Origin: Chiloscyllium plagiosum
Lineage: Eukaryota
DNA length: 64,000 nucleotides
Direction: 5' to 3'
Assembly: GCF_004010195.1 (NCBI RefSeq)
Contig: NC_057718.1
Location: forward strand, 47,683,556-47,747,555
In this document: positions 17,140 through 60,890 of the stretch, piece by piece
How positions within the stretch are numbered: position 1 is the first letter of the stretch
Layout: every line of letters begins with the position of its first letter
Position numbers and translations under genes: made by a program
The notes under the pieces: generated by a model
Told to the model about the DNA's origin: nothing
Database searches by the model: none
The model's input: the letters and a program-made list of their open reading frames with translations, nothing else

Positions 17140-20100
17140 TACAAACAGCAGAGCACAGGAACAGGTCTTTTGGCCAAGGAAGCCTCTGCCGATTCCCGGT
17201 CCTTATTTAGGCCTGCTACTTACTGCACATATGTGGTTTTATCAACAGGTGCCTTACTACAGCGCATGTAAAGAATGTCTATTGCCACTCCCTCATCAAT
17301 CATTCTTGTCACCTCCTCAAAAAACGCAATCAAGTTGGTGAGACATGATTTTCCCCCCACGAACCTATACTGTCTATCATTAACAAATGCATTCACTTAC
17401 AAATGTGGATATATCTGGAGTTCAGTATCTTCCACAACAATTTCCCCATCATTGACATCAGGCTCAGAAACCCGTAATTACCTGGATTATCTCTGTTTCC
17501 CTTTTTAGAGAAAAGTACAATATTGGCCACTCTCCAGTCCTCTGGAACCACACCTGAGGCCAAAGCGGATGCAAAGATATCAGGTAAGTCCCCACCTATT
17601 TCCTCCCTTGCCTCTCTCAGTATCCTGGATCAGAATCCATCTGGCCCTGTGAACTTGTCTACCTTAAGACATTTGAAGACACCCAAGACATCCTCCTTCG
17701 TTATGTTAACCTGCCCAAGAGTATTCACACACCTTTCAAAGAACAAAGAACACAAAATTCACAGCCCAAAAGCAGGGCCTTCGGCCCTCCAAGCCTATGC
17801 TGATCCAAATCCACTGTCTAAACCTATTACCCGATTCCTAAGGATCTGTATCCCTCTGCTCTCCACCTACTCATGCATCTGCCCAAACACACCTCAAAAT
17901 GAATCTACCATGCCTGCCTCTACTACCTCTGCTGGTAACGCGTTCCAAGCACCTACCACCCCTTGCCACATGTATCCCCCATAAACTTTCCTCCTCTCAC
18001 CTTGAACACATGACCTCTCGTTAGTGAATCCCTCAACTTAGGGGGAAAAAGCTAATCTTGATCCACCTTGTCAATCCCCTTCCTGATTTTATAGACCTCA
18101 ATCAGGACCCCCTCAATCTCCTTTTTTCTCATGAAAATAATCCTAATCTACTCAACCTCTCTTCATTGCTGGCACCTTCCATACCAGGCAACATCCTCGT
18201 AAACCTTCTCTGCACCTTCTCCAAAGCATCCACATCCTTTTGGTAATGTGGCAACCAGAACTGTACACTATGTTTTAAATACAGCCAAACTAAAGTCATG
18301 TACAATTTTAACATGACCTGCCAGCTCTTTTTTCAATACCATATGTCTTCTTGACCACTCTATCCATCTGTGCAGCCACCTTCAGGGTACAATGGACCTG
18401 AACTCCCAGATCTCTCTGTTCATCAACTTTTCCCAAGGCGCTTCCATTTACAGTACAGTTCACTCTAGAATGAGATCTTTCAAAATTTATCACCTCATAT
18501 TTTCCTGGACGGACGTTGCAATTCTGGACTCCTTCCTATTGGAAAGATGTTGTGAAACTTGAAAGGGTTTAGGAAATATTTACAAGGATACTGCCAGGGT
18601 TGGAGGCTGGGGTTATTTTTCCCTGGAGCGTCGGAGGCTGAGGGGTGACCTTATAGAGGTTTACAAAATCATGAGGGGCATGGATAGGATAAATAGACAA
18701 AGTATTTTCCCTGGGGTCAGGGAGTCCAGAACTAGAGGGCATAGGTTTAGGGTGAGAAGGGAAAGATATAAAAGAGACTTGGGGCAACTTTTTCACACAG
18801 AGGGTGGGACGGTTATGGAATGAGCTGTCAGAGGAAGTGGTGGAGGCTAGTACAACTGCAACATTTAAAAGGCATTTGGTTGGGTATATGAATAGGAAAG
18901 GTTTGAAGGGATATGGGCCGGGTACTGGTAGGTCGGACTAGATTGGTCGGGATATCTGGTTGGCATGGACGGGTTGGACCGAAGGGTCTGTTTCCATGCT
19001 GTACATCTCTATGAACTCTATCTGCTACTTCGCCGCCTAACTCTCCAGTCTATCTATATTCTCCTGTATTCTTTGACAGTTCACTTTGCGTTCTGCTCCC
19101 ACACCAATCTTCGTGTCATCTGCAAACTTATTGATCAGACCACCAATGCCCTCTTCCAGATCATTTATGTTGCCTTCTTCCACATCATTTATTCCCTAAC
19201 TTCAACATCCCTCATGACCCTCTATTTGGTAAATACTGAAGTAAGGTATCATTAAGGATCACATTCATTTCCTTTGGCTCCATGCAGAACCTCCCTCTTT
19301 TATCCTCGAGTAAGCCTACTCTTTCCTTAGCTACTAGCCTTTCCTTTCATCCTAATGGAATATACTGTCTCCAGACTCTGGTTATTTCATTTATGAAGGC
19401 TTACCATTTTCCATCCCTTTACCTGCAAATATCTGCCCCCAATCAGCTTTTAAAAGCTCTTGCCTAATAATGTCAAAATTAGCCTTTTTCCAATTTTAGA
19501 ACTTTAACTCTTGCTTCTAATGGGATTCTTTCTAACCCTGCTGGCCAAGAACATTTCATAGCCTCTTCCAGCCCTCCTAACTCCCTGTTTGCGCTCCTTC
19601 CTACTTATTCTATATTCTTCAAGGAGTTCTTCTGTTTTTAGTTGCCGAGACATTTGGTATGTTTTTTTTTGTGGACTAAGCTAGCCCCTTGCCATCCCAA
19701 GGTTCCTGAATCCTGCTATTCCTGTCCTTCATTTTCACATGAACATACTTGTCCTGCATGCTAATTAACTAGTCTTTAAAAGATTCCCATATGGCAGATA
19801 TGGATTCCCCTCAAATAGCCATTCCCAATCTAGACTCTCAAATTCTTGCCTAATTCAGTTATAGTTGCCCTTTCCCCAATTTAACAGTTCTATCTGAGGT
19901 CCATTCTTACCCTTGGCGATTAAATACCTGAACACTTATATAATTATGGTCACTCTTTCCAAATGATCCCCAATAAAACTTGCCAAGCTCATTTGCCAAT
20001 GTCAGGTAGAGTACGGACCCCTCCCTTGTTGGACTATTCACATATTGTTTCAGAAAACAGTCCTGGACACACCTAATAAATTACTCCCCATGCAAACCCC

Positions 20101-20255: not shown

Positions 20256-21997
20256 TATTAGTTTCAAAATAGTGATGGAAAAGGACAGTCCAGATCTAAA
20301 AGTTGAAGTTCTAAAATTGGAAAAAGGCTAATTTTGACATTATTAGGCAAGAGCTTTTAAAACCTGATTGGAGGCAGATATTTGCAGGTAAAGGGATGGA
20401 AAATGGTAAGCCTCCATAAATGAAATAACCAGAGTCCGGAGACAGTAAATTCCGTTAGGGTGAAAGGAAAAGCTAGTAGGCATAGGGAATGCTGGATGAC
20501 TAAAGAAATTGAGGGGTCAGTTAAGAAAAAGGAGGAAGCATATGTCAGATAGACAAGATAGATCAAATGAATCCTAAGAAGAGTATAAAGGCAGCAGGAG
20601 TACACTTAAGAGGGAAATCAGGAGGACATAGGAAACATGAGATAGCTTTGGCAAATAGAATTAAGAAGAATCCAAAGGGTTTTTACAAATACATTAAGGA
20701 CAAAAGGGTAACGAGGGAGAGAATAGGGCCCCGCAAAGATCAACAAGGCACCTTTGTGTGGAGCCGCAGGAAATGGGGAAGATACTCCACGAGTATTTTC
20801 CATCAGTGCTTACTGTGGAAAAGAACATGGAAGAAATAGAATGTAGGGAAATAGATGGTGACATCTTGAAAAGTGTCCATATTACAGAGGAGGAAGTGCT
20901 GGATGTCTTGCAAGGAATTAAAAGTGGATAAATCCCAGACCTTATCAGCGTACCCTAGAACTCTACGGGAAGCTCGGGAAGTGATTGCTGATTCCTTGCT
21001 GAGATATTCGCATCACTGATAGTCACAGATGAGGTGTCAGAAGACTGGAGCTTGGCTAATGTGGTGCCACTATTTAAGAAAAGTGGTAAGGAAAAGCCAG
21101 GGAACTATAGACCAGTGAGCCTGACTTGAGTGGTGGGCAAGTTGCTGGAGGGAATCTTGAGGGACAAGATTTAAACATATTTGCAAAGGTAAGGACTGAT
21201 TGGCTTTGAGTGTGGAAAATCATGTCTCAAAAACTTGATTGAGATTTTTTGAAGAGGTAACAAAGAGGGCTGATGATTGTAGAGTGGTGATGGACACGAT
21301 CTATATGGACACCAGTAAGATGTTCCACAAGGGTCCCCACGGGACACTGCTTAGCAAGGTTAGATCTCACGGAATACAGGGAGAACTATCCATTTGGATA
21401 CAAAACTGGCTCAAAAGGTAGAAGACGGAGGGTGGTTTTTCAGACTGGAGGCCTGTGAACAAAGGAGTCCCACAAGGATTGGTGCTAGGTCCACTACTTT
21501 TTGTCATTTTCCAAATGATTTGGATGTGAGCATAGGAGGTATATATAGTCAGTTTGCAGTCGACACCAAAATTGGGGTGTAGTGGTCAGCGAAGGAGGTT
21601 ACCTCAAAGTACAATGGGATTTTGATCAGATGGGCCAATGGGCTAAGGATTGTCACATGGAGTTTAATTCAGATAAATGTGAGGTACTGCATTTTGGGAA
21701 AGCAAATTTTAGCAGGACTTATACACTTAATGGTAAGATCCTAGGGAGTGTTGCTGAACAAAGAGACCTTGGAGTGCAGGTTCATAGCTCCTTGAAAGTA
21801 GACTCGCATGTAGATAGGATAGTGAAGAAGGCATTTGGTATGCTTTTCTTTATTGGTCAGAGTATTGAGTTGAGAGGTCACTTGGCGGCTGTACAGGACA
21901 TTGGTTAGACCACTTTTGGAATACTGCGTGCAATTCTGGACTCCTTCCTCTCGGAAGGGTGTTGTGAAACTTCAGTGTTGCCAGGATTGGAGGGTTT

Positions 21998-27370: not shown

Positions 27371-28007
27371 TCTGTGCGCATTCTGTAAACAGACATGCCC
27401 CATGCACAGAGTGTTTCTGACAACACCTGTAACAACCTGTTGTTGCCTTGTCCTTGTAAGACAACATGGAAGGATTGTATGAAGCTCCAGTATGGCCAAT
27501 GTTTAACATACCTGAGACAAATCATGCAGTGTATCATGTGCTAAGTCCTCATTTGCTCTCAAAATTCTTCTGTAAAGTAATACGCTTTCTGATGAGCCAA
27601 TGTTACTGTGGATCAAAGGGAAAGTTGGATTTCAGACCAACCCTTCGCTTTTCCAACTGGGTTCCTGTTCACTTCGGACCTATCCATATCATGTCTGTAG
27701 TGAGTGAAAGAGGGAGGGAGAGAACGAGCGAGCAAGGTGCAGACGAGGCCGGACTCCAAAAGCAGTGTACCTCTGGAACTACTTCATTCACTGTTAAAGT
27801 CACAGGTAGAATTTTAGTACAGTTCTGATCATTACCTTACAGGAATGGCATAATTGTTGCAAAGTCAGTACAGAGAATATGTACAAGAATGTTGCCAGGA
27901 CTTGGAAATTTCAGTTGCGAGGTAAGAGTAGATAGGCTGGGATTATTTTCTACCAGAGAAGGCTGAGGGGTGACTAAATTGAGGTGAACAAAAATAATGA
28001 GAAGTTA

Positions 28008-28886
28008 GCGTCACAAAGGAGAAGAGGTCGAACCCTCTGCCAATTAAACCAAAACAGCAGCCCCAATCTTTATTGGCAGGGGTAGAGGTTCTCTTCTAAT
28101 GATTAAATACAAAACACCCAGAGAAGCTCGGCATGCCCCTCACAATCTGTTAAAAGAGTAGTCAAATGAAAGGAATCCCTGATACTCACTTTATAAGTAT
28201 CAAGTAGCAGTTTATTTATTTAACCATAACAGTGAACAAATTAACCAAATTACTAACAAACCAAACAATTCCCCTCTAACTACTATTTCTTAATAGAACA
28301 AGATTCTAATCGTATGCTGTTCCAATAAACACAGGTCGGACATACAAACAATAAGAAAACAATAAACTAAAACTTTGAGAGACTAAGTTCACACAGAATG
28401 AGTCTTCCTGAATGCTGTGCCTTCTCCACTGCCTCTTCGGCCTTTCTTCTGCTGATCTTATCACAAACACCTTTCTTCCGTTGAACCTGCTGTCAGGGAT
28501 GTTTTCTCTAATTTCTTCTGTGAGGACTCTTAGCTAGAAACATCATTGTACTTTTTATTGTGCTTTTTTTTTTAAGGCAGCTTAGTGATTTTGAGAGAGG
28601 GGAAGGTATTTATTCCTCAGATGGCAAGTTTGCTCTCACTTGAGCTGGCAGTTGGTTTTAACCTCTGTGCAATTGACCCCTTCTTTATACCAGTGATGAC
28701 ATAACAATTTCCTTACAATAACATTGGTCCAAGGTTGTCAAAACCATCATATTTAAATTCAGTTCGTTTACAGTTTCTAAGTGCTTGGTTTAAATTAGTT
28801 GGCTGATTTCAAGCTAGTTGTCAAAACACAGCCAATTGATACACGTTTCAATTTCAGAACTCTCGGTACAGTTTTCAGCTACTTAC
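28008..28886. mobile_element. LTR-like or unclassified interspersed insertion next to a CR1 fragment (27810-28005)
   Basis: Abrupt break from CR1 sequence. Composition and layout resemble 2976-3590 (tttattta tract, ends ttaca). Confidence 0.35.
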
Positions 28887-28894
28887 AGACACAA

Positions 28895-29095
28895 TTTGGT
28901 TCTTTATGGTAATGGAGGAGGCCAAGGATAGTAATGTCGGAAAAGGACCGAGAAGGAGAATTAAAATGGGCGGTGACAGGGACATCTGGTTGGCCCTTGC
29001 AGGCCCAGCTGAAATGCTCGGCGAACTGTTCCGTACGTTTACGTTTGGTCTCCCTGACATAGGGAAGACAACATCAGGAGCACCTCATGGCAGAC
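28895..29095 (-). mobile_element. Old Penelope-like GIY-YIG endonuclease relic
   Basis: MRCS*CCLPYVRETKRKRTEQFAEHFSWACKGQPDVPVTAHFNSPS, homologous to YCIRCTRCGLLYVGETGR...AEHFNSPSH at about 39440-39580. Confidence 0.75.
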
Positions 29096-29934
29096 CCGAG
29101 TACTCTACATTCCCACAAACCAATAATAACTTTACACACCCTTGCACATCAAGCATCTATTCACATCTGCCTTAAAAAATAATCAACAAAATTAAAACGT
29201 GCTAGAGAAACTCGGATAACGTGGTAGCAGCTGTGATGAGAAACTGGAGTCAATATCCAGTGGTCCTTATTTTGGGATTAAATTTTCATTGTAACATTCT
29301 ACAAGCTTTTCTAATTACTTGCTGTACCCATACACTAACCTAATACTAATGCAATCTCTTACCATTTACATAATATGCAGTTTTATTCTATCTGCCAAAA
29401 ATGGACAATTTCACACTTATCTACATTATATTCCGTTTGCCTGATATTTTCCCAACCACTCAACCTATTTATGTTTTTGTAGCCCCACGAACACTGCATT
29501 GCTTACTTTCCCCCCTAACTTTGTCTCATCAGCAGCATTAGCGGATGAAGTTACCAAGGTATGGCCAAGTTATTTACATAAAACCAACAAGTTGAAAGCT
29601 CAGAAGTGACACAAGTCACTCAGAAGCACACAACTCACTGCATCTGGCCAGCCAAAAAATTACCCATATACCATTATTTTGAGTTTCATGTAAGCTAGCC
29701 AGACCTCTACCCATGTTACCTCCGACACCATGAACTTTTATTTTTTGCAATAAACCTTGATCTAACACCTGATCAAAATCACCTTGGACAACGTACAACC
29801 ACATTACTTTTTCAATGAACTCCATTAAATTCGTTAAATGTGACCTTCCTTTCACAAAAACATGTCAGGCCTGCCAGATTACCCTGAACTTCTTGAAATG
29901 ACCTGCTCTACACATTTTGCAATAGCTTATAACT

Positions 29935-30600
29935 CAGTCATAGAGATGTACAGCATGGAAACAGACCCTTCAGTCCAACCTGTCCATACCGACCAGATAT
30001 CCCAACACAATCTAGTCCCACCTGCCAGCACCCGGCTCATATCCCTCCAAACCCTTCCTATTCATATACCCATCCAAATGTCTCTTAAATGGTGAAATTG
30101 TACCAGCCTCCACCACATCCTCTGGCAGCTCATTCCATACATGCACCACCCTGTGTGAGAAACAGTTGCCCCGTTGGTCTCTTTTATATCTTTCCCCTCT
30201 CACCCTAAACCTATGCCCTCTAGTTCTGGTCTCCCCGACCCCAGGGAAAAGACTTTGCCTATTTACCCTATCTATGCCCCTCATTATTTTGTAAACCTCT
30301 AAGGTCACTCCTCAGCCTCTGACGCTCCAGAGAAAACAGCCCCAGCCTGTTCAGCCTCTCCCTATAGCTCAAATCCTCCAACCCTGGCAACATCCTTGTA
30401 GATCTTTTCTGAACCTTTTCAAGTTTCACAACATCTTTCCTAAAGGAAGGAGTCCAGAATTGCACACAATATTCCAACAGTGGCCTAACCAATGTCCTGT
30501 ACAGCTGCAACATGACCTCCCAACTCCTGTACTCAATACTCTGACCAATAAAGGAAAGCATACCAAACACCTTCACTATCCTGTCTACCTGCGACTCCAC
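29935..30600 (-). mobile_element. 5'-truncated young HER1 LINE
   Basis: LVRPLLEYCVQFWTP...RMLPGLEDLSYRERLNRLGLFSLE; TRTRGHRFRVRG. Confidence 0.92.
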
Positions 30601-31875
30601 CCAGTCCCTATTTGTTGAATAAAGTTATGAAACCCGCAGTTTTTCAGTTCAAGGGAACCTTTACCACGTCTAGGAAATGTTGGAAAATGAAAACCAATAC
30701 ATCAGCTATCTCTCTAACCACTTCTTTTAAGTTTCTACGATGGAAACTATCAGGCTCTAGGGACTTGTCAGCCCACAGTTCCAACAATTTTCTCAGAACC
30801 ACTACTCTATGCTTACAACTTTCTTGAACTCCTCACTCCCTCCCACTGATGAGCAACTATTTCTAGTATTTTATTTGTATCCTCTACAGTGAAGATCGAT
30901 GTACAATTACTTTTCAATTTATCTACCATCTCCTTGATTTTTCATTACTATTCCCTCAGATTCACTTTCTATAGAACCAACAACTGCTTGGTTAACTGCA
31001 TTCTTTTTAAAACATCATAAGACTTTACACAGATATTTATGTTTCTAGCTAATCTTCTCTCATTCTAAACATTCCCTCCTTATTGTGACATATTTTGCAG
31101 TTTCTTATATTTAGTCCAATCTTCCAACCCGCCACACAATGTGGCATAATTATGTTATTTTCCATTAAGTTTGATAACACTTAACATTTTTTTTTATAAA
31201 TTAATGAAGAACATTAGGGTTTTTGGGATTTTTTCCATCTCATTGAAATAAAGAAGTTCTGTGTATCCTGAAATATTCCCTTAACTATTTACTTGTTAAT
31301 ACAGCGCTATTGATTTTCACCTGAAATTATGAGGGTATGGCAAATCAGTTAAGGTTAAAATCACAGCCTTAGATCCTTCACTCAGTCCTTGCTTCTACTG
31401 GTAACTTGGACGCTTTCCTCTTGGACCTGTTATTTTTCACTTCATACTGAATGCAAAGTTCAATCCTATTATATTCGCTTCTACCTCGGGAAACCTTGAC
31501 TATGAAGTCATTCATTAATAGCGTCCTGCTGCACAACATCAGGTTCAGTTTGGTTTGCAGTTGGGTTGGTTCCAAAACGTGATGTTCAAAGAAACAATTC
31601 TAAAACCTTCAATGAATGCCTCAGCTAGGCTACTACTGCCCATCTGATTTTCCAGCAAATATTTTGACTAAAATCCCGTAAGATTATGACTGTTTGTTTC
31701 AAACAAAATCTCATCATTTCTTCCAACGACGTGATTTCTGCCAGTGGTCTGTACATCACTCATATAAGTGACTCCTCGTCTTTTGTTTCTCATCTCAACC
31801 CAAACCATATCTATACCCTTGATTCATCAACTTAGGGCATCCCTCTTCATTGTGCTAATCCAATATTAAGCAATA

Positions 31876-32880
31876 CAGGTCATGGTCCTATAATGCGTAT
31901 TTCGTTACCGCGATTTGGCTGTAATGCAATTTGTGAATTTATTAGATTAGATTACTTAGAGTGTGGAATGTGGAATTTTTTTTAAATAAAGTGAACACCC
32001 ATTCGCTGTGACATGATTCCATCCCCTGTTATACCAGCCAGCTGTGATTTATTCTACTGGCACATCCATTGCGACAGGTTGTCGCCTGCGTCTGATTTTT
32101 TTTGCTTCTATCTGCAACTAAGGTAAAGGAAGCAAACATTGGAATATTTTGCTGGAATGCTTCGTGGGATCATGCACAAAGTTGGAGCCAAGGAGCAGCA
32201 AGAGAGAGGCATAGGGAGTGGAAGAAGGTGCAAATACAGCGATGTCCAGCGTGTGTTGAAGAGTAAGCAAGGCCTTTTGTTGAGCAGTGGCTCAGATGCT
32301 GGCTATCTGAAGCTTCAACACATGGCAACTTTACAAGAGAGAGTGCGTGTGCATAGAAGGAGGGAGGTGTGAAACTAAGGAAAAACCACTGGCAACTCTT
32401 ATCTCTCCCCACCCACGTATCTGCTAAGTTATGCCTGATCCAAATTCACCCAGTCTCTGTTTGAAAAGAAGAGGGGGAGGAGAGCAGGGGAGAGTGGATC
32501 AGAGGGTCCTGCCCCTTATTCTCTCCGAAACCCATGAAGCATCAAAACCTTCAGCTGTTCAGAGCATCCCAGCCCTTTAGCCACCACTTCAAATTAAAAA
32601 TTTTACTCGTCATAAAAAAAACTTCTGGAAGTTTCACAAAAATTGAATGGCAGAGAATGAATCCAGTTCTGGATAAATTCCACTCCACAAGAAGCCGGGA
32701 ATATAATACGTTGAGAAATTTCACATGTAACAACTTAACATTTGTGTAATTGACCAGAAATGGGCAGGTTCGATAAACTGGAATTCCCTAACCCTGTTGT
32801 TCCCATAGGCCCAATTACCTCTATTGCATGATTTTCTACAATAAGACATCGCACAGGAACACAGCTACCAGTAGATACCT
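31876..32880. mobile_element. TcMar/Tigger-like non-autonomous DNA element
   Basis: Begins TA|CAGGTC...tataatgcg...cgcgatttggctgtaatgc. Interrupts a CR1; right end degenerate. Confidence 0.4.
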
Positions 32881-33692
32881 TTCTGTCCTTCTGCCTTATG
32901 TTACAATCCAGGGATTAACAACTCTGAATTTTGGTTGGTCAATTTTGTGTCATGCTGACTAAGCATATACAATGTATGTTATTGGTACTTATACCAATAA
33001 GTCACAGTCACACACTCTTCTTTCTGATCAGTGACTGCCCCCTGGAATAAAGGGTCCAGGTAACCTTTCCCCCTTTCTGATCTGTTGCATTATACGTAAA
33101 TCAATGTTCGGGTCATAAACAAGTTGCTCAAGCTACAAACACGAATGCACATTTGCCCTGATTACAGTGGAATTGAGGAGCTCCCACATTCTACAATCAC
33201 AAGACAATAATTGTCCGGCCACCTTTTCGTCTTAATTAATTATCTTGAATAATTATTAAATTATCATCGCTAACGAGCACTTACTATACTTACTTGAACC
33301 TTACAATCCAATCTGTTACATTGAAAATTACATGAAAGTGCACAGTCAATATTCTAAACTATTGCTTTTTCCAAGCGTCATCAAGGAAAATAAACGTTGC
33401 ATGCCCACCTTTGGTAGAGATAGCTGAAAAGAACACTAATATCAATGAGATGCTAGCTGTAGGCTTGAAATGGCTGAAAATAATTCAAAATACCAAAGAA
33501 AGGGAAGGAATTCTGCAAGACAAAGAACTGACTGCCATTGGGTATATTCACCTGCATTGCTTCAGATGGAGACAACCAAAGCAGACCATGGAAGCCCTCA
33601 ACTTGTACGAAGATTTCCAAAAGCATGTGACAGAATTCCACATGAGGGATTGACAGTTAAACTCAATGCAAAATGGATTCAGGAAAAGCTCA

Positions 33693-33895
33693 AAAATGTG
33701 TTGCTGGAAAAGCGCAGCAGGTCAGGCAGCATCAAAGGAACAGGAGAATCGACGTTTTGGGCATAAGCCCTTCTTCATTCCTGAAGAAGGGCTTATGCCC
33801 GAAACGTCGATTCTCCTGTTCCTTTGAATGCTGCGCATTTCCAGCAACACATTTTTAAGCTCTGATCTCCAGCATCTGCAGTCCTCACTTTCTCC
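33693..33895. mobile_element. Penelope-like terminal-repeat foldback insertion
   Basis: Arms about 33693-33777 / 33782-33856. 14-bp direct repeat TCAGGAAAAGCTCA at 33679-33692 and 33896-33909. Confidence 0.8.
33781..33808 (+). ncRNA. Minimal hammerhead ribozyme-like core
   Basis: CTGAAGA-A-GGGC-TTAT-GCCC-GAAA-CGTC. Confidence 0.7.
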
Positions 33896-34237
33896 TCAGG
33901 AAAAGCTCAGAAAAGAAATAACATTGCTCTCTGTCCATCAGCTAAATCAGTATTAATAAAAGGAGTTACTATCAGTGAGTGGAAGAAGCAAAGTGTGAAA
34001 TGACCCAGGAATCAGCTGTTCCTAATTTGCACAGATATTTTGAATTCAGAGAATAGAAAATGAAATTTGGTTTAATCTAGAAAGACATGAATGTACAAAA
34101 AGCAGTTGCATTTTTTTTAAGGAAAGACCTCAGAACATAACTATGAGAGGTACTGCTTGGTTCTTGACCTCTTATGACTTCAATAGAAAATGTCCTGGTG
34201 ATCTTGATTAGGAAAAAACTTAGAAGAATGCGCTTAC

Positions 34238-34286
34238 TTTAGCCAAAATAAAGATGTAATAGGATGATTGACTCATTTTACTTATG
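34238..34286 (-). CDS. Candidate 49-nt exon (ISKMSQSSYYIFILAK)
   Basis: Acceptor tgttctgttag, donor AAA|GTAAGC. Phase-compatible with 34788-34837 and 23634-23708. Confidence 0.3.
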
Positions 34287-34492
34287 CTAACAGAACAATT
34301 GTTAATTATAAACAGATTATCTACTGAAGTTTAAAAAAAAGTAGTTACAAGTTTATAACACTATTAGTTCATATAGTTCATATAGGATGCCTAAAAGGAA
34401 ATTTTGATTATGTTTTTAAACTCTGAGCTGTAAATCAAATATGAATTTGCAGTTAGAAATAAAATTGTAATATGCAAAGAAAACAAAACTTA

Positions 34493-34813
34493 AGGGCAAA
34501 AAAATTATTTGCTCACAGGTAAGATTCCTGCTACGAGTCTTCTACAAGCCTTTCAATATTTGTGTCTTATCAGAAGATAAAATTACAATGAGTAAATTAA
34601 AGTCATTACGTTTATACTAAAATAGACTGTCAAGATAAGATGTAACACATTCTCAAAAAACCTATTTGGGACTTGAACCTAAGCCTCTTGACTCAGGCAG
34701 GAACACTACTACTGCACTACAGTGGTCCCCAGCTAACCTGCAGGAAATATTGAAAGGCTTGTAGAAGACTCGTAGCAGGAATCTTACCTGTGAGCAAATA
34801 ATTTTTTTGCCCT
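34493..34813. repeat. Perfect 69-bp inverted repeat with 183-bp spacer
   Basis: 34493-34561 is the exact reverse complement of 34745-34813. It extends to 75 bp with one mismatch. Confidence 0.95.
34640..34730 (-). mobile_element. tRNA-derived SINE head inside the inverted-repeat spacer
   Basis: A-box-like TAGTGCAGTAG and B-box GGTTCAAGTCC on the minus strand. Confidence 0.55.
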
Positions 34814-34837
34814 AAAGTTGGATTTTTCCAAAACATC
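34788..34837 (-). CDS. Candidate 50-nt exon (DVLEKSNFRAKKLFAH or MFWKNPTLGQKNYLLT)
   Basis: Acceptor tttcaatcatag, strong donor CAG|GTAAGA. Confidence 0.4.
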
Positions 34838-34937
34838 CTATGATTGAAATACCCGAACTCCAACGTCTAGATTAACACAAGCTAGGGATTGAGTTCAAAT
34901 TATTTGAGGAATCTGGGGTTGTTCTTTTTTTTTTACA

Positions 34938-35262
34938 TTAGATTACATTAGATTAGATTAGATTAATTACATTACAGTGTGGAAACAGGCCCTTCGGCCC
35001 AACAAGTCCACACCGACCCACCGAAGCGTAACTCACCCATACCCCTACATTTACCCCTTACCTAACACTAGGGGCAATTTAGCATGGCCAATTTACCTGA
35101 CCTGCACATCTTTGGACTGTGGGAGGAAACCGGAGCACCCGGAGGAAACCCACGCAGACACGGGGAGAACATGCAAACTCCACACAGTCAGTCGCCTGAG
35201 GCAGGAATTGAACCCGGGTCTCTGGCGCTGTGAGGCAGCAGTGCTAACCACTGTGCCACCGT
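34938..35262 (-). mobile_element. HE1-like V-SINE, full length, young
   Basis: tRNA-like head (ggcacagtggttagcactgctgcctcac...ggttcaattcc), V-domain (ctgcgtgggtttcctccgggtgctccggtttcctcccaca) and (TCTAA)n tail. Confidence 0.92.
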
Positions 35263-42971: not shown

Positions 42972-44378
42972 CTAACAAATGAAAAGGACTGCAGAACCCA
43001 ATTCCTAAATATTCACAATATGGCACCATACATTTCTGCCTTTAAATTCTACATAGTGGATTCATGATCCGAGTTGTCTGGAATCAAATACATTAAGAGA
43101 CATTACCTAAAAACACTGGTACTGAGTAGATGCACATGTTTGCCAAAAAAAAAAAACAAGAACAGCTATGCCAATTTAACTAGGAACTTTAAAGCAGCAG
43201 ATAAGCCATTCACTGAGGTTTAAGCATCTTTTAAGATTGTTGTTGAGGGTAAATGGCTTTAACCTTCACTGCTGATATCTCTAACAGATGGTTTCAAATC
43301 ATTCTTACATCATGTCAAAGAGCAGGCATATAATAAACTTGGATTCTTTTTTTGTTAAAAAGTTCTTTGGCAGCCTCATGTGGCACTTCCTTTGGCAGCT
43401 CATTCCATTCAAATGCCAAAGACGACAGAACAGTGTACGTTGCCTAAATCGACTTCAACTAGGCATTGACAAGGTTCTGCATGGTCGACTGGATAGCAAA
43501 GTTAGATCACAGAATCCAGAAAGAGCTAGCCATTTGGATAGAAAATTGACTTCTAGGTAAGAGACAGAGGGCTGTTTTCAGACTGGAAGCCTGTGACCAA
43601 CAGTGTGCCACAAGGTCAATGCTGAGCCACTGCTTTTTGTCATTTATGTAACTGATTTGGATTTGAATAAAGAAGAAATGGTTAGTAATTGTGCAAAATT
43701 GGTCACGTAGTTGACAGCGAAGGAGGTTATTGTAGAATACAACAGGACCTTGCTCAGATGGGCCAACAGACCACGGAGTCTCAGATGGTGTTTAATTTAG
43801 ATAAACGTGACGTGCTGTATTTTGGTAAGGCAAATCAGGCAGGACTTGTATACTTCATGCTATGGTCCTGAAGTGTTTTGCTGAACAAAGAGACCTTGGA
43901 GTGCAGGTTCATAGTTCCTTGAAAGTGGAGTTGCAGGTAGACAGGGTACTGAAAGCAGTATTCGGTACACTTGCCTTTATTGGTCAATGCATTGAATTTC
44001 AGAGTTGGGATGTCATGCTACTGCTGTACCAGAACATTGGTTCGGCCACTTTTTTTGAATACTGCATTCAATTCTGGTCTGCCTGCTATCAGAAAGATAT
44101 TGTGAAACTTGAAAGGATTCAAAAGAGATTTACATGCATGTTGCCGGAGTTGGAGGGTTTACGCTATTGGGAAAGGCTGAATAGGCTGGAGCTATTTTCC
44201 CTGGAGAGTCAGAGGCTGAGGCCAATCTTATAGATGTTTATAAAATTATGGGTCACATGGATAGGGTGAATAGCCATATAGGTAAAAACAATGACTGCAG
44301 ATGCTGGAAACCAGATTCTGGATCAGTGGTGCTGGAAGAGCACAGCAATTCAGGCAGCATTTGAGGACAGGCAAAATC

Positions 44379-44406
44379 AATGTTTCGGGCAAAAGCCCTT
44401 CATCAG
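44379..44406 (-). ncRNA. Hammerhead-like core, cleavage-site region mutated
   Basis: Reverse complement CTGATGA-A-GGGC-TTTT-GCCC-GAAA-CATT. Confidence 0.5.
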
Positions 44407-44733
44407 GAATAAAGGCAGAGAGCCTGAAGCGTGGAGAGATAAGCTAGAGGAGGGTGGGGTGGGGAGAGAGTGGCATAGAGTACAATAGGTCAGTGGGGAA
44501 GGAGATGAAGGTGATAGGTCAGGGAGGAGAGGGTGGAGTGGATAGGTGGAAAAGGAGCTGGGCAGATCGGACAAGTCCGGACAGGTCAGGGGAGCGAGTT
44601 TCTGGAGGTTAGAAGCTAGGATGAGGTGGGGGAACGGGAAATGAGGAAACTGTTGAAATCCACACTGATGCCCTGGGGTTGAAGTGTTCCGAGGCAGAAG
44701 ATGAGGCGTTCTTCCTCCAGGCATCTGGTGGTG

Positions 44734-45365
44734 NNNNNNNNNNNNNNNNNNNNNNNNNNNNNNNNNNNNNNNNNNNNNNNNNNNNNNNNNNNNNNNNNNN
44801 NNNNNNNNNNNNNNNNNNNNNNNNNNNNNNNNNNNNNNNNNNNNNNNNNNNNNNNNNNNNNNNNNNNNNNNNNNNNNNNNNNNNNNNNNNNNNNNNNNNN
44901 NNNNNNNNNNNNNNNNNNNNNNNNNNNNNNNNNNNNNNNNNNNNNNNNNNNNNNNNNNNNNNNNNNNNNNNNNNNNNNNNNNNNNNNNNNNNNNNNNNNN
45001 NNNNNNNNNNNNNNNNNNNNNNNNNNNNNNNNNNNNNNNNNNNNNNNNNNNNNNNNNNNNNNNNNNNNNNNNNNNNNNNNNNNNNNNNNNNNNNNNNNNN
45101 NNNNNNNNNNNNNNNNNNNNNNNNNNNNNNNNNNNNNNNNNNNNNNNNNNNNNNNNNNNNNNNNNNNNNNNNNNNNNNNNNNNNNNNNNNNNNNNNNNNN
45201 NNNNNNNNNNNNNNNNNNNNNNNNNNNNNNNNNNNNNNNNNNNNNNNNNNNNNNNNNNNNNNNNNNNNNNNNNNNNNNNNNNNNNNNNNNNNNNNNNNNN
45301 NNNNNNNNNNNNNNNNNNNNNNNNNNNNNNNNNNNNNNNNNNNNNNNNNNNNNNNNNNNNNNNNN
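44734..45365. other. Assembly gap (632 N)
   Basis: Run of N. Confidence 1.
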
Positions 45366-45917
45366 GGACAAGTCATGGGGACAGTGCTGAGCTGGAAGTT
45401 TGGAATTAGGTTGAGGTGGGGGAAGGGGAAATGAGGAAGCTGTTGAAATCCACATTGATGCCCTGTGGTTGAAGTGTTCCGAGGCGGAAGATGAGGCGTT
45501 CTTCCTCCAGGCGTCTGGTGGTGAGGGAGCGGCGGTGGAGGAGGCCCAGCACCTCCATATCCTCGGCAGAGTGGGAGGGGGAGTTGAAATGTTGAGCCAC
45601 TGGGCGATTTGGTTGATTGATGCGGGTGTCTCTGAGATGTTCCCTAAAGCGCTCTGCTAGGCGGCGCCCAATTTCCCCAATGTAGAGGAGGCCGCATCGG
45701 GAGCAACGGATACAATAGATGATATTAGTGGATGTGCTGGTAAAACTTTGATGGATGTGGAAGGCTCCTTTAGGTCCTTGGATGGAGGTGAGGGAGGAGG
45801 TGTGGGCGCTGGTTTTACAGTTCCTGCGGTGGCAGGGGAAAGTGCCAGGATGGGGGGGTGGGTCGTAGGGGGGCGTGGACCTGACCAGGTAGTCACGGGG
45901 GGAACGGTCTTTGCGGA

Positions 45918-46235
45918 AGGCGGAGAGGGGTGGGGAGGGAAATATATCCCTGGTGGTGGGGTCTGTTTGGAGGCGGAGAGGGGTGGGGAGGGAAATATAT
46001 CCCTGGTGGTGGGGTCTGTTTGGAGGCGGAGAGGGGTGGGGAGGGAAATATATCCCTGGTGGTGGGGTCTGTTTGGAGGCGGAGAGGGGTGGGGAGGGAA
46101 ATATATCCCTGGTGGTGGGGTCTGTTTGGAGGCGGAGAGGGGTGGGGAGGGAAATATATCCCTGGTGGTGGGGTCTGTTTGGAGGCGGAGAGGGGTGGGG
46201 AGGGAAATATATCCCTGGTGGTGGGGTCTGTTTGG
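45918..46235. repeat. Six tandem copies of a 53-bp G-rich unit
   Basis: Unit AGGCGGAGAGGGGTGGGGAGGGAAATATATCCCTGGTGGTGGGGTCTGTTTGG starting at 45918, 45971, 46024, 46077, 46130 and 46183. Confidence 0.95.
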
Positions 46236-46578
46236 AGGTGGCGGAAATGTCGGCGGATGATTTGGTTTATGCGAACGCCTCATCTTCCGCCTTGGAACAC
46301 TTCAACCCCAGGGCATCAATGTGGATTTTAACAGTTTCCTCATTTCCCCTTCCCCCACCTCATCCTAGCTTCTAACCTCCAGAAACTCGGTCCCCTGACC
46401 TGTCCGGACTTGTCCGATCTGCCCAGCTCCTTTTCCACCTATCCACTCCCCCCTCTCCTCCCTAACTTATCACCTTCATCTCCTTCCCCACTGACCTATT
46501 GTACTCTATGCCACTCTCTCCCCACCCCCACCCTCCTCTAGCTTATCTCTCCACGCTTCAGGCTCTCTGCCTTTATTC

Positions 46579-46606
46579 CTGATGAAGGGCTTTTGCCCGA
46601 AACGTC
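46579..46606 (+). ncRNA. Minimal hammerhead ribozyme-like core
   Basis: CTGATGA-A-GGGC-TTTT-GCCC-GAAA-CGTC. Confidence 0.7.
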
Positions 46607-47079
46607 GATTTTGCCTGTCCTCGGATGCTGCCTGAATTGCTGTGCTCTTCCAGCACCACTGATCCTGAATAGCCATATAGTCTTCTTCCTAGGGTACAGG
46701 AGTCCAAAACTAGAGGGCATAGGTTTAAGGTGAGAGGGTAAACATTTGAAAGGGACCGAAGGGGCAACCTTTTCACGTAGAGTGTGGTGTGTGCAAGGAA
46801 TGAACTGCCAGAGGAAGCAGTGGAGGCTGGTACAATTACAACATTCAAAAGGCATCTGGATGGGTACATTATTAGGAAGGGTTTAGAGGAATATGGGCCA
46901 AGTCTTGACAAATGGGACTAGACTAATTTATGATATCTGGTTGGCATGGACGAGTTGGACCAAAGGGTCTGTTTTCGTGCTGTACATCTCTATGACTCTA
47001 AGTTTAACAATATCTTTCTTTTATGAAATATATTTTTGTATGAGCTTATCTAATTTATCTTGAGTGCAAGGTTTTTCTT

Positions 47080-54084: not shown

Positions 54085-54358
54085 AAGACCACCTGATGAA
54101 GGAGCAGTGCTTCCAATTAAATCTGTTGGACTGTTGGACTATAACTGGAGTTGTATGCTTTTTAAACTTTGTACACCCCAGGTAAAAACAATGACTGCAG
54201 ATGCTGGAAACCAGATTCTGGATCAGTGGTGCTGGAAGGGCACAGCAGTTCAGGCAGCATCCGAGGAGCAGTAAAATCGACGTTTCGGGCAAAAGCCCTC
54301 TTTATTCCTGATGAAGGGTTTTTGCCCGAAACGTCGATTTTACTGGCATCTCCAAATC
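54085..54358. mobile_element. Nested PLE terminal repeats: foldback (54181-54345) inside a different CTGATGA-bearing repeat
   Basis: 54181-54299 is nearly identical to 44281-44399. The inverted partial copy holds a hammerhead core at 54308-54335. The host repeat begins ccacCTGATGAaggagc. Confidence 0.7.
54308..54335 (+). ncRNA. Minimal hammerhead ribozyme-like core
   Basis: CTGATGA-A-GGGT-TTTT-GCCC-GAAA-CGTC (U-G pair in stem II). Confidence 0.65.
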
Positions 54359-57300: not shown

Positions 57301-58624
57301 ACTACAGATACACTCAACAAACTCTTCCTCAAGGATACCCTAACCAAGCTGGTGCGACCAAGCTACATGCAGATTAAAATCCCTCATGATAATAGCCATA
57401 CCATTTTTGCAAGCATTAGTTATTTCCTTATTTATTGCCCAGCCCAATGTGATGTTATTATTTGGTGACTTATAGACTAAGCATATCAATGACTTTTTCT
57501 TCTTGGAATTCCTAATTTCCATCCAAATGGATTCAACCTCATGCTCCATAGAACGTATACCATCTCTCAGCACCGCTCTGAATATCAGAGCTACACCACC
57601 TCCCTTGCAGTCCTGTCTGTCCTTCCGAATAATCTGATACCTCTAGATATTTAATTCCCAGTCATGACCATTCTGCAACCATTTTTCCATGAAGGCTACA
57701 AAATCATATTCGTTCAAGATGCTTTGTGCTGTTTACTCATCAACCTTGTTAAGAATGCATTCAGGTAAAATACCTTTCGGCTAGCCTTCTTACCATATGA
57801 TTCATAACATCTAATATCTCCTAAGTTATCCTTCATTTTTGCTTCTTTCACAGTTTGCCTTGAACTTAAACCCTCCTGCATACAAGCTAACCTGCTGGTT
57901 ACCTTTTCATTTATCACCACACTTCCTGTTGCTTTCCCTTTCCCTTTGCCCCGACTCGTTTAAAGTCCTAATGACCACCCTATTTATCCTTTTCGTGAGA
58001 ACACTGGTTCCAGATTGGTTCAGGTAGATACTGTCCCATCAGTACAGATTCCCCCTAGCTGCAAAACTGATGCCAATGCCCCATGAAATGGAAACTCTTT
58101 TTCTCACACCATTCCCTTTGCCATGTATTTACTTCCCTAATTTTCTTGTTCCTAAGACAATTTGCATGTGGCTCGGGCAGTAATCCAGATATTATGATTA
58201 TTGAGGACCTGTTCCTTAATTTCATTCCTCGTGCTTGATAATACCCAAACAGGTCCTCCATCCTACCCTTGCCTATGTTGTGAGTCGACCACAACAACTA
58301 GCTCCTCCCCCACCCGCTCCAGTATCCTTTCAAGCAGGTCAGAGATGTCCTGCATCCTGGCACCGGACAGGCAACATACTATGCGGGACTCCCTACCTGG
58401 ATTGCAAATGATACTATCTGTTCCCCTTATTATAGAATCCCCTATAACTCCCACTTGTCTTTTTGCTCCCCCTGTCTTGAATCGCCTTCTGCACTATGGT
58501 GTCATGGTTAGTTGGCTCATCCTCCTCACAGGAGAAAGTGAGGTCTGCAGATGCTGGAGATCAGAGATGGAAATGTGTTGCTGGAAAAGCGCAGGTCAGG
58601 CGGCATCTAGGGAACAGGAGAATC

Positions 58625-58652
58625 GACGTTTCGGGCATTAGCCCTTCTTCAG
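58625..58652 (-). ncRNA. Minimal hammerhead ribozyme-like core
   Basis: Reverse complement CTGAAGA-A-GGGC-TAAT-GCCC-GAAA-CGTC. Confidence 0.7.
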
Positions 58653-58656
58653 GAAT

Positions 58657-58684
58657 CTGAAGAAGGGCTAATGCCCGAAACGTC
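58657..58684 (+). ncRNA. Minimal hammerhead ribozyme-like core
   Basis: CTGAAGA-A-GGGC-TAAT-GCCC-GAAA-CGTC. Confidence 0.7.
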
Positions 58685-60890
58685 GATTCTCCTGTTCTCT
58701 AGATGCTGCCTGACCTGCTGCGCTTTTCCAGCAACACATTTCCAGCTCATCCTCCTCACAGCCCTTTTCCTAATCCATAAAGGGAGCAAGAATCTCATAC
58801 CTGTTGGATAAAGGTCAAAAGCTGAGGCTCTTGTACTCCTGAACTCAGGATCCCCCTACCCACCTCACTTACAATCACACCCTGTTGTCCCTCATCACTA
58901 ACTGAATTTGAATTACTTAATCTACCAGGTGGGACTGCCTCCTGAAACAAAGCGTCCAGGTAACTCTCCCTCTACTAGATGTGCCAGTATTTGAAGCTCA
59001 GATTCCAGATCATCAACTCTCAGTCGGAGTTCTTCCAGCAACCAACGCTTGCTGCAGATGCAATCACTGCCATTCACAATGGGATCAGCAGCCCCCACAC
59101 ATACAGCTACAGCACGTCACCGACCAGCCATCTCCACCTAGTTAATTAATACATACAAATTTGAGTTTAATAATTTCTAGTACTTTGCTATGGTCTTATT
59201 CAATTAACCAATTAACAGAAGATTAAACAAAGTAAATTTTTAACCAACCAACTTACCTTATCAACCCACCACAGAGTCCTTTCTTTGTGGTTAGAGGAGG
59301 GCAGGTGGGAGACACGACACGTCTCGGGTTCAGCCGCTGCCCAAATATATTGCCAGCAGCCCTCGCCCCCCTCCGGTGTTCACCTCTGCCTCTGCTCCTG
59401 TAAAATGGTAGGTCCCAATGCTAGAGATAACCATCAAGTAACATTCATACCATACAAGTGCCAGGCAAAGACAAAGACAAAGATAATCTCTAACAAGACA
59501 ATTTAACTATGGCCCTGTTATTCAATAGCATTTCAATTGCTGAATTCACTCCCACTACCAACTCCTACAATTTACCATCAACTAGAAACTAAATTGGACC
59601 AGCCATATAAATACAGTGGCTGGAAGTACAGGTCAGAGGTTGAGAATTCTGGACTTTTCAAATCCAGTCCACCATTTACAAGGCATACGTCAGGAGTGAG
59701 ATGCAGTACTTTTCACTTGCCTGAAACAGATTGAATTCCAACAACACATAAGGTACTAAACACTATCTACAACAAAGCAACCCACTTGACTGGCACTCCA
59801 TTTAACATCTTCAACATTTACTCTTTTCACCAGACTCCATAACAACCGTGTGCAATACTCTGCAACAACTCTCAAACATTCCTGAGACCTTCCAAATGTA
59901 TAATCTCAAAGAAAATGGCAGCAGATGCATGGGATCACCACAAACTGCAAGTAACCCTTTATGCCACACACCATCCTGACTTGAAACTATATCACTGTTG
60001 TGACTATAACTGCTCAAGGCAGCAGCTGACCACCACCTTCTGAAGGGCAATTAGGGACGAACAATCAATGCTAGCCCAACTAGTGATGCCCACTTTTGCG
60101 ATTTTTTTTTAAAAAATCCTCTTGAAAACTTCACCACAGCATCTGCCAATCCATTTTTGTACATTTGAACGAAGTTGTGTGTTAATTATGACAAGAACAG
60201 GAAGAACAAATTCCAACACCCATTCAATGTTTTACAGCAAAACTATTTAAGGCAGTGCTGGATTAAATTTTCAAACTTTGCATAATAGCAATCATGAATT
60301 ATACTGATCTCTTCCATCTTCCCTTATGAATAATCCAAAAAAAAAGCATAATCCTCTGAAAAATGACAATTCTCATTACACTTGTAAGAATATCTGAACA
60401 CAAGTCTACTTAAAAATTAATAATTATGTGCTGCTAAGAGTCAACCAGCTAGTGAGGACTTCATTAAGAACTCCGTAGACTTTGAAAGACATTTTACTTG
60501 GAGAATTTACTGCCTGCGTACCCCCCTTAAGATTGTCTTCAACAAAATAATAAAATTTTAGGCAAAGTTGACAAAACTAACTGGTCAGCATGGACAAGTT
60601 GAACTGAAGAATCAGTTTCCAGCATTCTGAACTTATATTGCAGCAAAACTGTGGTTACTGCAAATAAACTAAATTGCTTTTATGCTGACAGTCACTACGT
60701 CATGCATGCTACTAGACTATAAAATTAACCCACAACTACTTGCATTGGCAATCTCACAACCTGCCCACCACATTAGGGTTAAAGTTGAGTCCATTTTAAT
60801 TAGTAAGATATACATAGAAACTGTGAAACACTGCAAGCTGTCAGTAAATTGTGACAGAATTCTGTCAGTTGCAGATTTTTTCAGATTGTA

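Follow-up and report, generated by a model that had tools for sequence, protein, structure and literature searches.

The window analysed here, a stretch of 64,000 nucleotides from the reference genome of Chiloscyllium plagiosum (organism A), lies entirely within the first intron of PPP2R5A, a minus-strand gene with exon 1 ending at window-equivalent position 69114 and exon 2 starting at -15498 (Table 1), which bears out the minus-strand orientation proposed in an earlier note on this DNA. Exon-like frames over 200 kb on each side gave eight peptides, all eight with Pfam matches, to the families B56, TMEM206, INTS7_N and Acyltransf_C and, weakly, to WD40 and Cyt-b5. The B56 family was found on two later exons of PPP2R5A, one B56 exon having the B56 alpha isoform as its best match among solved structures (E 8e-18), and the neighbouring genes, named from the human gene order, are presumably LPGAT1, DTL and NENF. 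The actual donor of PPP2R5A exon 1 (AAG/GTACCT at 69114/69113; L016:5113-5114), which precedes the 84.6-kb intron, is weak, with a score of 1.7; this and all splice-site scores below come from our own rough PWM and are not MaxEntScan values.

In the middle of this intron, 34493-34561 and 34745-34813 are reverse complements of each other without a mismatch (69/69), with the arms 183 nt apart, as had been described in the earlier note; beyond a mismatch at 34492/34814, five further pairs extend the unit to 34487-34561 and 34745-34819 (74/75), and an alternative inverted-repeat call at the same pair gives 82 nt at 95%. At 34492 the reference reads A, as opposed to T in the sequencing runs X9, X10 and X17 (the last from a related species, organism B), and as the right arm pairs with T, the arm pairing is raised to 75/75 with this allele; the reference A is either a change post-dating the copying of the arm or a segregating allele. 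Neither arm has another match in the window, in agreement with the earlier observation, and the left arm produced two matches in the whole genome at E<=10, both at its own locus, a search-tool result that does not amount to proof of rarity. The surrounding 464 kb contain 23 inverted pairs no more than 5 kb apart, four of which are locally unique, and the pair described here is the sole one among these four that is at least 50 nt long and more than 95% identical.

The minus-strand RNA is predicted to fold into one long stem (-171.4 kcal/mol, z -14.65). When 34400-34900 was compared with the genome, 30 matches were obtained, three of them the locus itself and 27 the SINE fragment in the loop, so that the SINE part of the tRNA-SINE head previously placed in the loop is supported; a tRNA type is suggested by a reading of A and B boxes, and an Rfam search of 34200-35000 at E<=1 gave no match. 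A pre-miRNA born by template switch was rejected, as the stem of 75 bp and the loop of 183 nt are not miRNA-shaped when set against the stem of 30-55 nt and the short apical loop required of template-switch pre-miRNAs in the accessible text of Monttinen et al. (2023; 10.1101/2023.04.19.537475).

Table 1. Features of the inverted repeat and its host intron, in window coordinates (A, reference genome; B, related species; slash in motifs, cut site).
Feature	Position	Strand	Remarks
Intron 1 (84,611 nt) of PPP2R5A (PP2A B56-alpha)	contains window 1-64000	-	exons 1 and 2 join in frame
Left arm	34487-34561	.	ancestral template; present in B (contig 34420-34572, 7 differences)
Loop	34562-34744	.	183 nt; collinear in B contigs
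Old short-SINE fragment in loop	~34664-34736	-	genome matches 79-88% identical; same family as the element after 34751 in B
Right arm	34745-34819	.	derived inverted copy; new letters 34752-34819; replaces at least 623 nt held by B
7-nt microhomology AAATATT	34745-34751	+	complementary to 34555-34561; common to A and B; likely priming or joining site
Right junction	34820-34821	.	no clear microhomology; base 34820 matches neither template nor B
Strong donor motif CAG/GTAAGA	34782-34790, cut 34788/34787	-	AG/GT recursive-splice-like; pairs with 34516-34524
Candidate exon, a chimeric pseudoexon	34788-34837	-	34788-34819 new copy, 34821-34837 old flank
Hypothetical RS-exon-like segment	34738-34787	-	50 nt; ends at weak donor CAG/GTTAGC; sequence shape only
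Likely A-to-I edited sites	34505, 34510, 34520, 34532, 34540	-	T>C on +; 5/5 in X9

The relation between the arms was read from organism B, which served as outgroup with contigs of one run (X17, 85% of which was read) and differs from A at 13 of 387 aligned bases (3.4%). The left arm is unbroken in one B contig (Table 1), the contig with the loop matches up to 34751 and then continues in unlike letters, and a second contig matches 34821-34880 with 623 unlike letters ahead of 34821, as read from the record coordinates; the B contigs thus depart from the window sequence within 7 and 2 nt of the two ends of the right arm. Since the left arm and the loop occur in B, whose contigs break off from the window sequence on either side of the right arm, it is this donor-bearing arm that is the new copy. 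The alignment of orthologous loci that the earlier note had suggested for dating the second arm accordingly finds B without 34752-34819 and with the left arm in place, and the divergence at both ends of the right arm lends support to its side remark on a recent replication template switch. The length of the replaced segment, at least 623 nt, is a lower bound because no B contig bridges it, the two unlike ends of B being located on separate contigs the join of which is assumed.

Beyond 34751, B continues with the terminal part of a short SINE, of which 25 nt are visible and whose family has 1,890 matches in the A genome; the B letters ahead of 34821, with one genome match at one mismatch versus nine for a control, look like unique DNA. 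Twenty sampled copies of the SINE family are at most 76% alike, with a mean of 61% (190 pairs) that is somewhat lowered by flanks; compared with the difference of 3.4% between A and B, these values indicate that the element is probably older than the split, so that, judged from the sequences, the SINE after 34751 in B would already have been present in the common ancestor, with the B state probably ancestral. Two 20-nt probes from the segment missing in A had no match in the window at 3 mismatches, and a translocation or inversion of the segment within the window was rejected. B also carries an insertion at 34577/34578, missing from A, which ends in a (TAATC)n tail resembling the tail of a window SINE at 34940-34975.

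An old inverted duplication, kept identical in A by gene conversion and lost in B, is scarcely credible as an alternative origin of the repeat, as it presupposes that an old SINE and unique DNA took the place of B sequence precisely at the two arm boundaries. Concerted change could nevertheless explain that at 34520 and 34540 both A arms are in the T state while B has C, and the identity of the arms is compatible with an age equal to the A-B split, the chance of zero mismatches in 75 at 3.4% divergence being 0.08; arm identity alone therefore dates little. Either changes in the B lineage or C-to-T damage on an exposed single-stranded template prior to copying would both fit the difference at 34520 and 34540.

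With respect to an assembly artefact, such as a fold-back read, a word share of 0.96 in runs X1 and X2 discriminates little, with both junctions making up about 6% of the words and X1 and X2 being perhaps the source of the assembly themselves. The pairing of the right arm with T at 34492, the base of X9, X10 and B, and not with the reference A, however, counts against an artefact, as do the presence in B of a stretch missing from A and the T>C clusters described below, which imply a partner strand in other animals. The arms have equally been considered as TIRs of a multicopy MITE, the condition under which the earlier note would have abandoned its reading; this was rejected, as the arms are single-copy genome-wide, with the two matches of the left arm both at the locus, and B retains orthologues of the left arm and the loop in place of a site from which the whole element is missing. 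An artefact or a MITE is extremely improbable.

The inverted repeat shares with insertions of the fold-back or microhomology-mediated (MMBIR) type a nearby reverse-complement template (183 nt away), a copy absent from B where the template is present and a 7-nt microhomology at the switch point. In the 1 kb upstream, the only complementary 7-mer partner of 34745-34751 is 34555-34561; the last 4-5 nt of the former also look like the terminus of the SINE found next to it in B. Under the proposed mechanism, a break or stalled fork would leave a 3' end at 34751, the last 7 nt of which would pair with 34555-34561 at a distance of 183 nt, further back on either the same strand or the sister, upon which a polymerase would copy 68 nt backwards from 34554 to 34487. 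The new end would then be joined to 34820/34821 with little or no microhomology, the total loss, the short old SINE included, amounting to 623 nt or more. In the mirror order, with minus-strand synthesis and the microhomology used at the final join, the product would be identical, and the product is the same under Pol theta, Pol delta with end joining and fork switch; the polarity of the event and the enzymes named are what we infer. In the predicted DNA fold of 34540-34751, the 7-bp primer pairing is not part of the minimum-energy structure (duplex -4.4 kcal/mol), which suggests that priming would have been transient or would have occurred between strands.

As far as the accessible text of the respective reports goes, the right arm is an ordinary member of a known mutation class. 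Fold-back inversions after induced breaks in yeast (41-nt loop, mostly 5-34 bp, with 10 to >150 bp reported) are primed at short inverted microhomology, with the other end joined by 0-5 bp of microhomology (Yu et al., 2024; PMC11724301). As in these, nearby DNA has been copied in inverted orientation, and microhomology marks one end, the other being nearly devoid of it, although the event described here is a germline event in a vertebrate, the loop measuring 183 nt, the copied stretch 68 nt and the deletion at least 623 nt. MMBIR templated insertions (MMB-TI), germline insertions of at least 25 bp counted at 10-11 classical cases in each human genome (Osia et al., 2021; PMC8421209), likewise combine a nearby inverted template with junction microhomology, which is found at one junction only in the present case. 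In the four-point template-switch model, with a median of 12, a maximum of 128 and a deletion limit of 50 nt, a perfect inverted repeat is made in one step, and intronic hairpins are co-transcribed with the host gene (Walker et al., 2021; PMC7954356; Monttinen et al., 2023; 10.1101/2023.04.19.537475). Point 2 lies before point 1, as is compatible with an intra-strand switch, and 68-75 nt fall in the range of this model; the jump from point 1 to point 4 of at least 623 nt, however, exceeds the limit of 50 nt and is the point in which the event departs from an otherwise fitting model.

The motif CAG/GTAAGA at 34788/34787, which had been pointed out in the earlier note, is present; before the inversion it lay antisense to PPP2R5A, and it now stands on the sense strand. 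The exon which it was thought to terminate, 34788-34837, is at best a pseudoexon in the 84.6-kb intron. As the whole window is located inside intron 1, the segment is no coding exon; in addition, it straddles the copy junction (Table 1), and its acceptor score of 0.6, equalled by 669 of 5,480 intron AG sites, compares with 3.2-5.2 for three real acceptors on the same rough scale. Splicing-in of the segment into PPP2R5A would lead to a stop at codon 62. The idea that the donor of a real exon became masked by a downstream complement gained later has to be reversed in its direction, the donor arm being the new copy that is absent from B. A pair of exons formed by 34788-34837 and 27512-27605, at first phase-compatible, was rejected, as PPP2R5A exons 1 and 2 join without either. 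The latter, a 94-nt exon-like open segment on the minus strand inside intron 1 with fair splice motifs, is probably a pseudoexon; searches with its peptide against Pfam, PDB and a large protein set gave no match. A plus-strand exon ending at 34519 was equally rejected, with stops in 3/3 frames, GC in B at the position of its GT, and the host gene on the minus strand.

Could the scar nevertheless be functional, the inversion having created the donor of a poison pseudoexon or a recursive splice site (RS site), the use of which is gated by the template stem and by editing? With a score of 7.4 versus 1.7 for the real exon-1 donor, the 34788/34787 donor is among the top 3 of ~4,890 sense GT sites in the intron (top 0.1%), and as an acceptor the site has the best score of 16 AG/GTRAG sites, with a second donor 50 nt on. 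The donor is also predicted to stay clear of the long stem until ~271 nt more have been transcribed and to be fully paired thereafter (pairing probability 1.0), and a random 75-nt inverted copy would bring along such a donor in ~0.3% of cases (three antisense sites in 84.6 kb). This last figure, however, is post hoc, such cases being the ones that readers select, the scores derive from a rough PWM, and the upstream acceptor is weak, as outlined above. Vertebrate RS sites and RS-exons, as far as can be judged from the accessible text, show YAG/GT within a long intron and another donor shortly downstream (PMC5126111; Sibley et al., 2015 therein), and the present site resembles them in these two respects, a resemblance of sequence shape only. 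RS sites are reported to be conserved in the same source, whereas 34788/34787 is absent from B, where the template reads GC and not GT, and is buried in a perfect stem.

Four runs examined over 27400-34930, an interval swamped by repeats, gave zero depth at 34708-34930, X21 being almost without reads outside repeats and X22 giving no contig, and the X9 and X10 contigs end short of the right arm and the candidate exon; such gaps have no bearing on splicing. A functional scar is considered very unlikely, neutrality being taken as a default. Just as small is the chance that a single repair event gave rise to a splice site together with an ADAR substrate and an antisense mask that acts with delay, and thereby to a newborn, kinetically gated switch on PP2A-B56-alpha output.

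Transcript-like contigs provide a view of the hairpin beyond its origin as a fold-back insertion. The X9 contig 34231-34574 contains nine substitutions, all in 34420-34574, six of which could be located, namely one A>T (34492) and five T>C (the sites listed in Table 1); the other three are each at most 30 nt from a piece end. The X10 contig, which stems from a different study and reaches to 34523, thus not covering 34532 and 34540, repeats the A>T change at 34492 and two of the T>C changes (34505 and 34520), with T at 34510, and one of its four differences is unlocated. T>C on the plus strand corresponds to A>G on the sense strand of PPP2R5A. In X9, 5/15 T were changed in the arm versus 0/78 in the flank (p 6e-5), and 5/52 positions versus 1/232 when all bases are counted (p 9e-4); in the worst case, with all unlocated changes placed in the flank, p is 0.04. 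ADAR disfavours a G 5' of the edited A, and such a G precedes 0/5 changed sites versus 4/15 available sites, numbers that are too few to be informative.

The types of the two runs are guesses (X9 recorded as 'RNA?' and X10 as '?'), and the contig depth is 3-4, unstranded and perhaps from one or two molecules. Outside the search stretch, 41% of the non-repeat intron is covered by the listed unique contigs of X9 (n=8) versus at most 8% genome-wide, which fits intronic RNA; the corresponding values for X11 are 18% versus 7%. Elsewhere in the window, contigs of X9 differ from the reference by T>C at 31205 and by A>G at 32126 (23/39 depth), which are either alleles or isolated edits.

A long intramolecular duplex in the predicted fold and sense A>G changes clustered in the arm make it probable that the T>C clusters represent ADAR editing of the arm duplex. 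An editing-complementary sequence had been proposed in the earlier note; the left-arm A>G clusters probably support its double-stranded RNA and editing part, while a recoded coding exon as the partner was rejected, both arms being located in intron 1. Alternatively, with the origin as a fold-back insertion unchanged, the T>C differences may be genomic alleles of other haplotypes, possibly without the right arm. This is suggested by C at 34520 and 34540 in B DNA, a coincidence with a chance of ~0.10 under editing, and by the guessed run types. It is, however, contradicted by T at 34505, 34510 and 34532 in both the reference and B, by the difference between X9 and X10 at 34510, and by the confinement to the arm of 5/5 changes of one type with none at 231 located positions in the flank of the X9 contig; on balance, genomic alleles are an unlikely explanation of the clusters.

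In the accessible text of Porath et al. (2017; PMC5625713), ADAR hyper-editing of long duplexes is general in animals, the elephant shark included. The hairpin described here is like such hyper-edited double-stranded RNA in its long near-perfect duplex within a transcript and in its clustered sense A>G changes, but unlike the usual substrate, in which two copies of a repeat pair up or one element is palindromic, in that the duplex is single-copy and seen in two low-depth contigs.

Cumulatively, these observations make it fairly probable that the single-copy 75-bp inverted repeat in PPP2R5A intron 1, with its right arm absent from B, most likely arose by a recent fold-back templated insertion during DNA repair, and that its hairpin is likely A-to-I edited and likely without a regulatory role. 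A repair scar that has likely become a single-copy ADAR substrate would make templated inversions a source of edited double-stranded RNA that does not need a pair of repeats. Any splice motif that an inverted copy moves onto the sense strand arrives together with its own mask, and if 34788/34787 were used in splicing, this would represent a dated and testable regulatory birth in one step. Among the titles and beginnings of abstracts searched, with subscription papers outside the scope, no paper was found on a link from templated inversion to ADAR substrate or on PPP2R5A intron 1.

Several other inverted structures are present in the window and its surroundings. A palindromic element of very high copy number occurs at 1339-1533, 33687-33861, 54269-54345 and 58564-58748, each copy being a ready intronic hairpin, and reaches a contig depth of ~2e5 over 33700-33951. 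At 19331-19512 and 20298-20479, an inverted pair of 182 nt (95% identical, 785 nt apart) is a candidate for intronic double-stranded RNA. The region 44315-46670 consists of an inverted pair of 150 and 256 nt at 95-96%, which flanks a tandem array and a gap of 632 N (44734-45365); its frames resemble what we take to be the end of a Penelope-type endonuclease. The three other locally unique inverted pairs (L017-L019; window-equivalent 77604-81195, 84636-84837 and 93467-95728), with 32 nt at 97%, 52 nt at 90% and 94 nt at 90%, are either older scars or rarer repeats.
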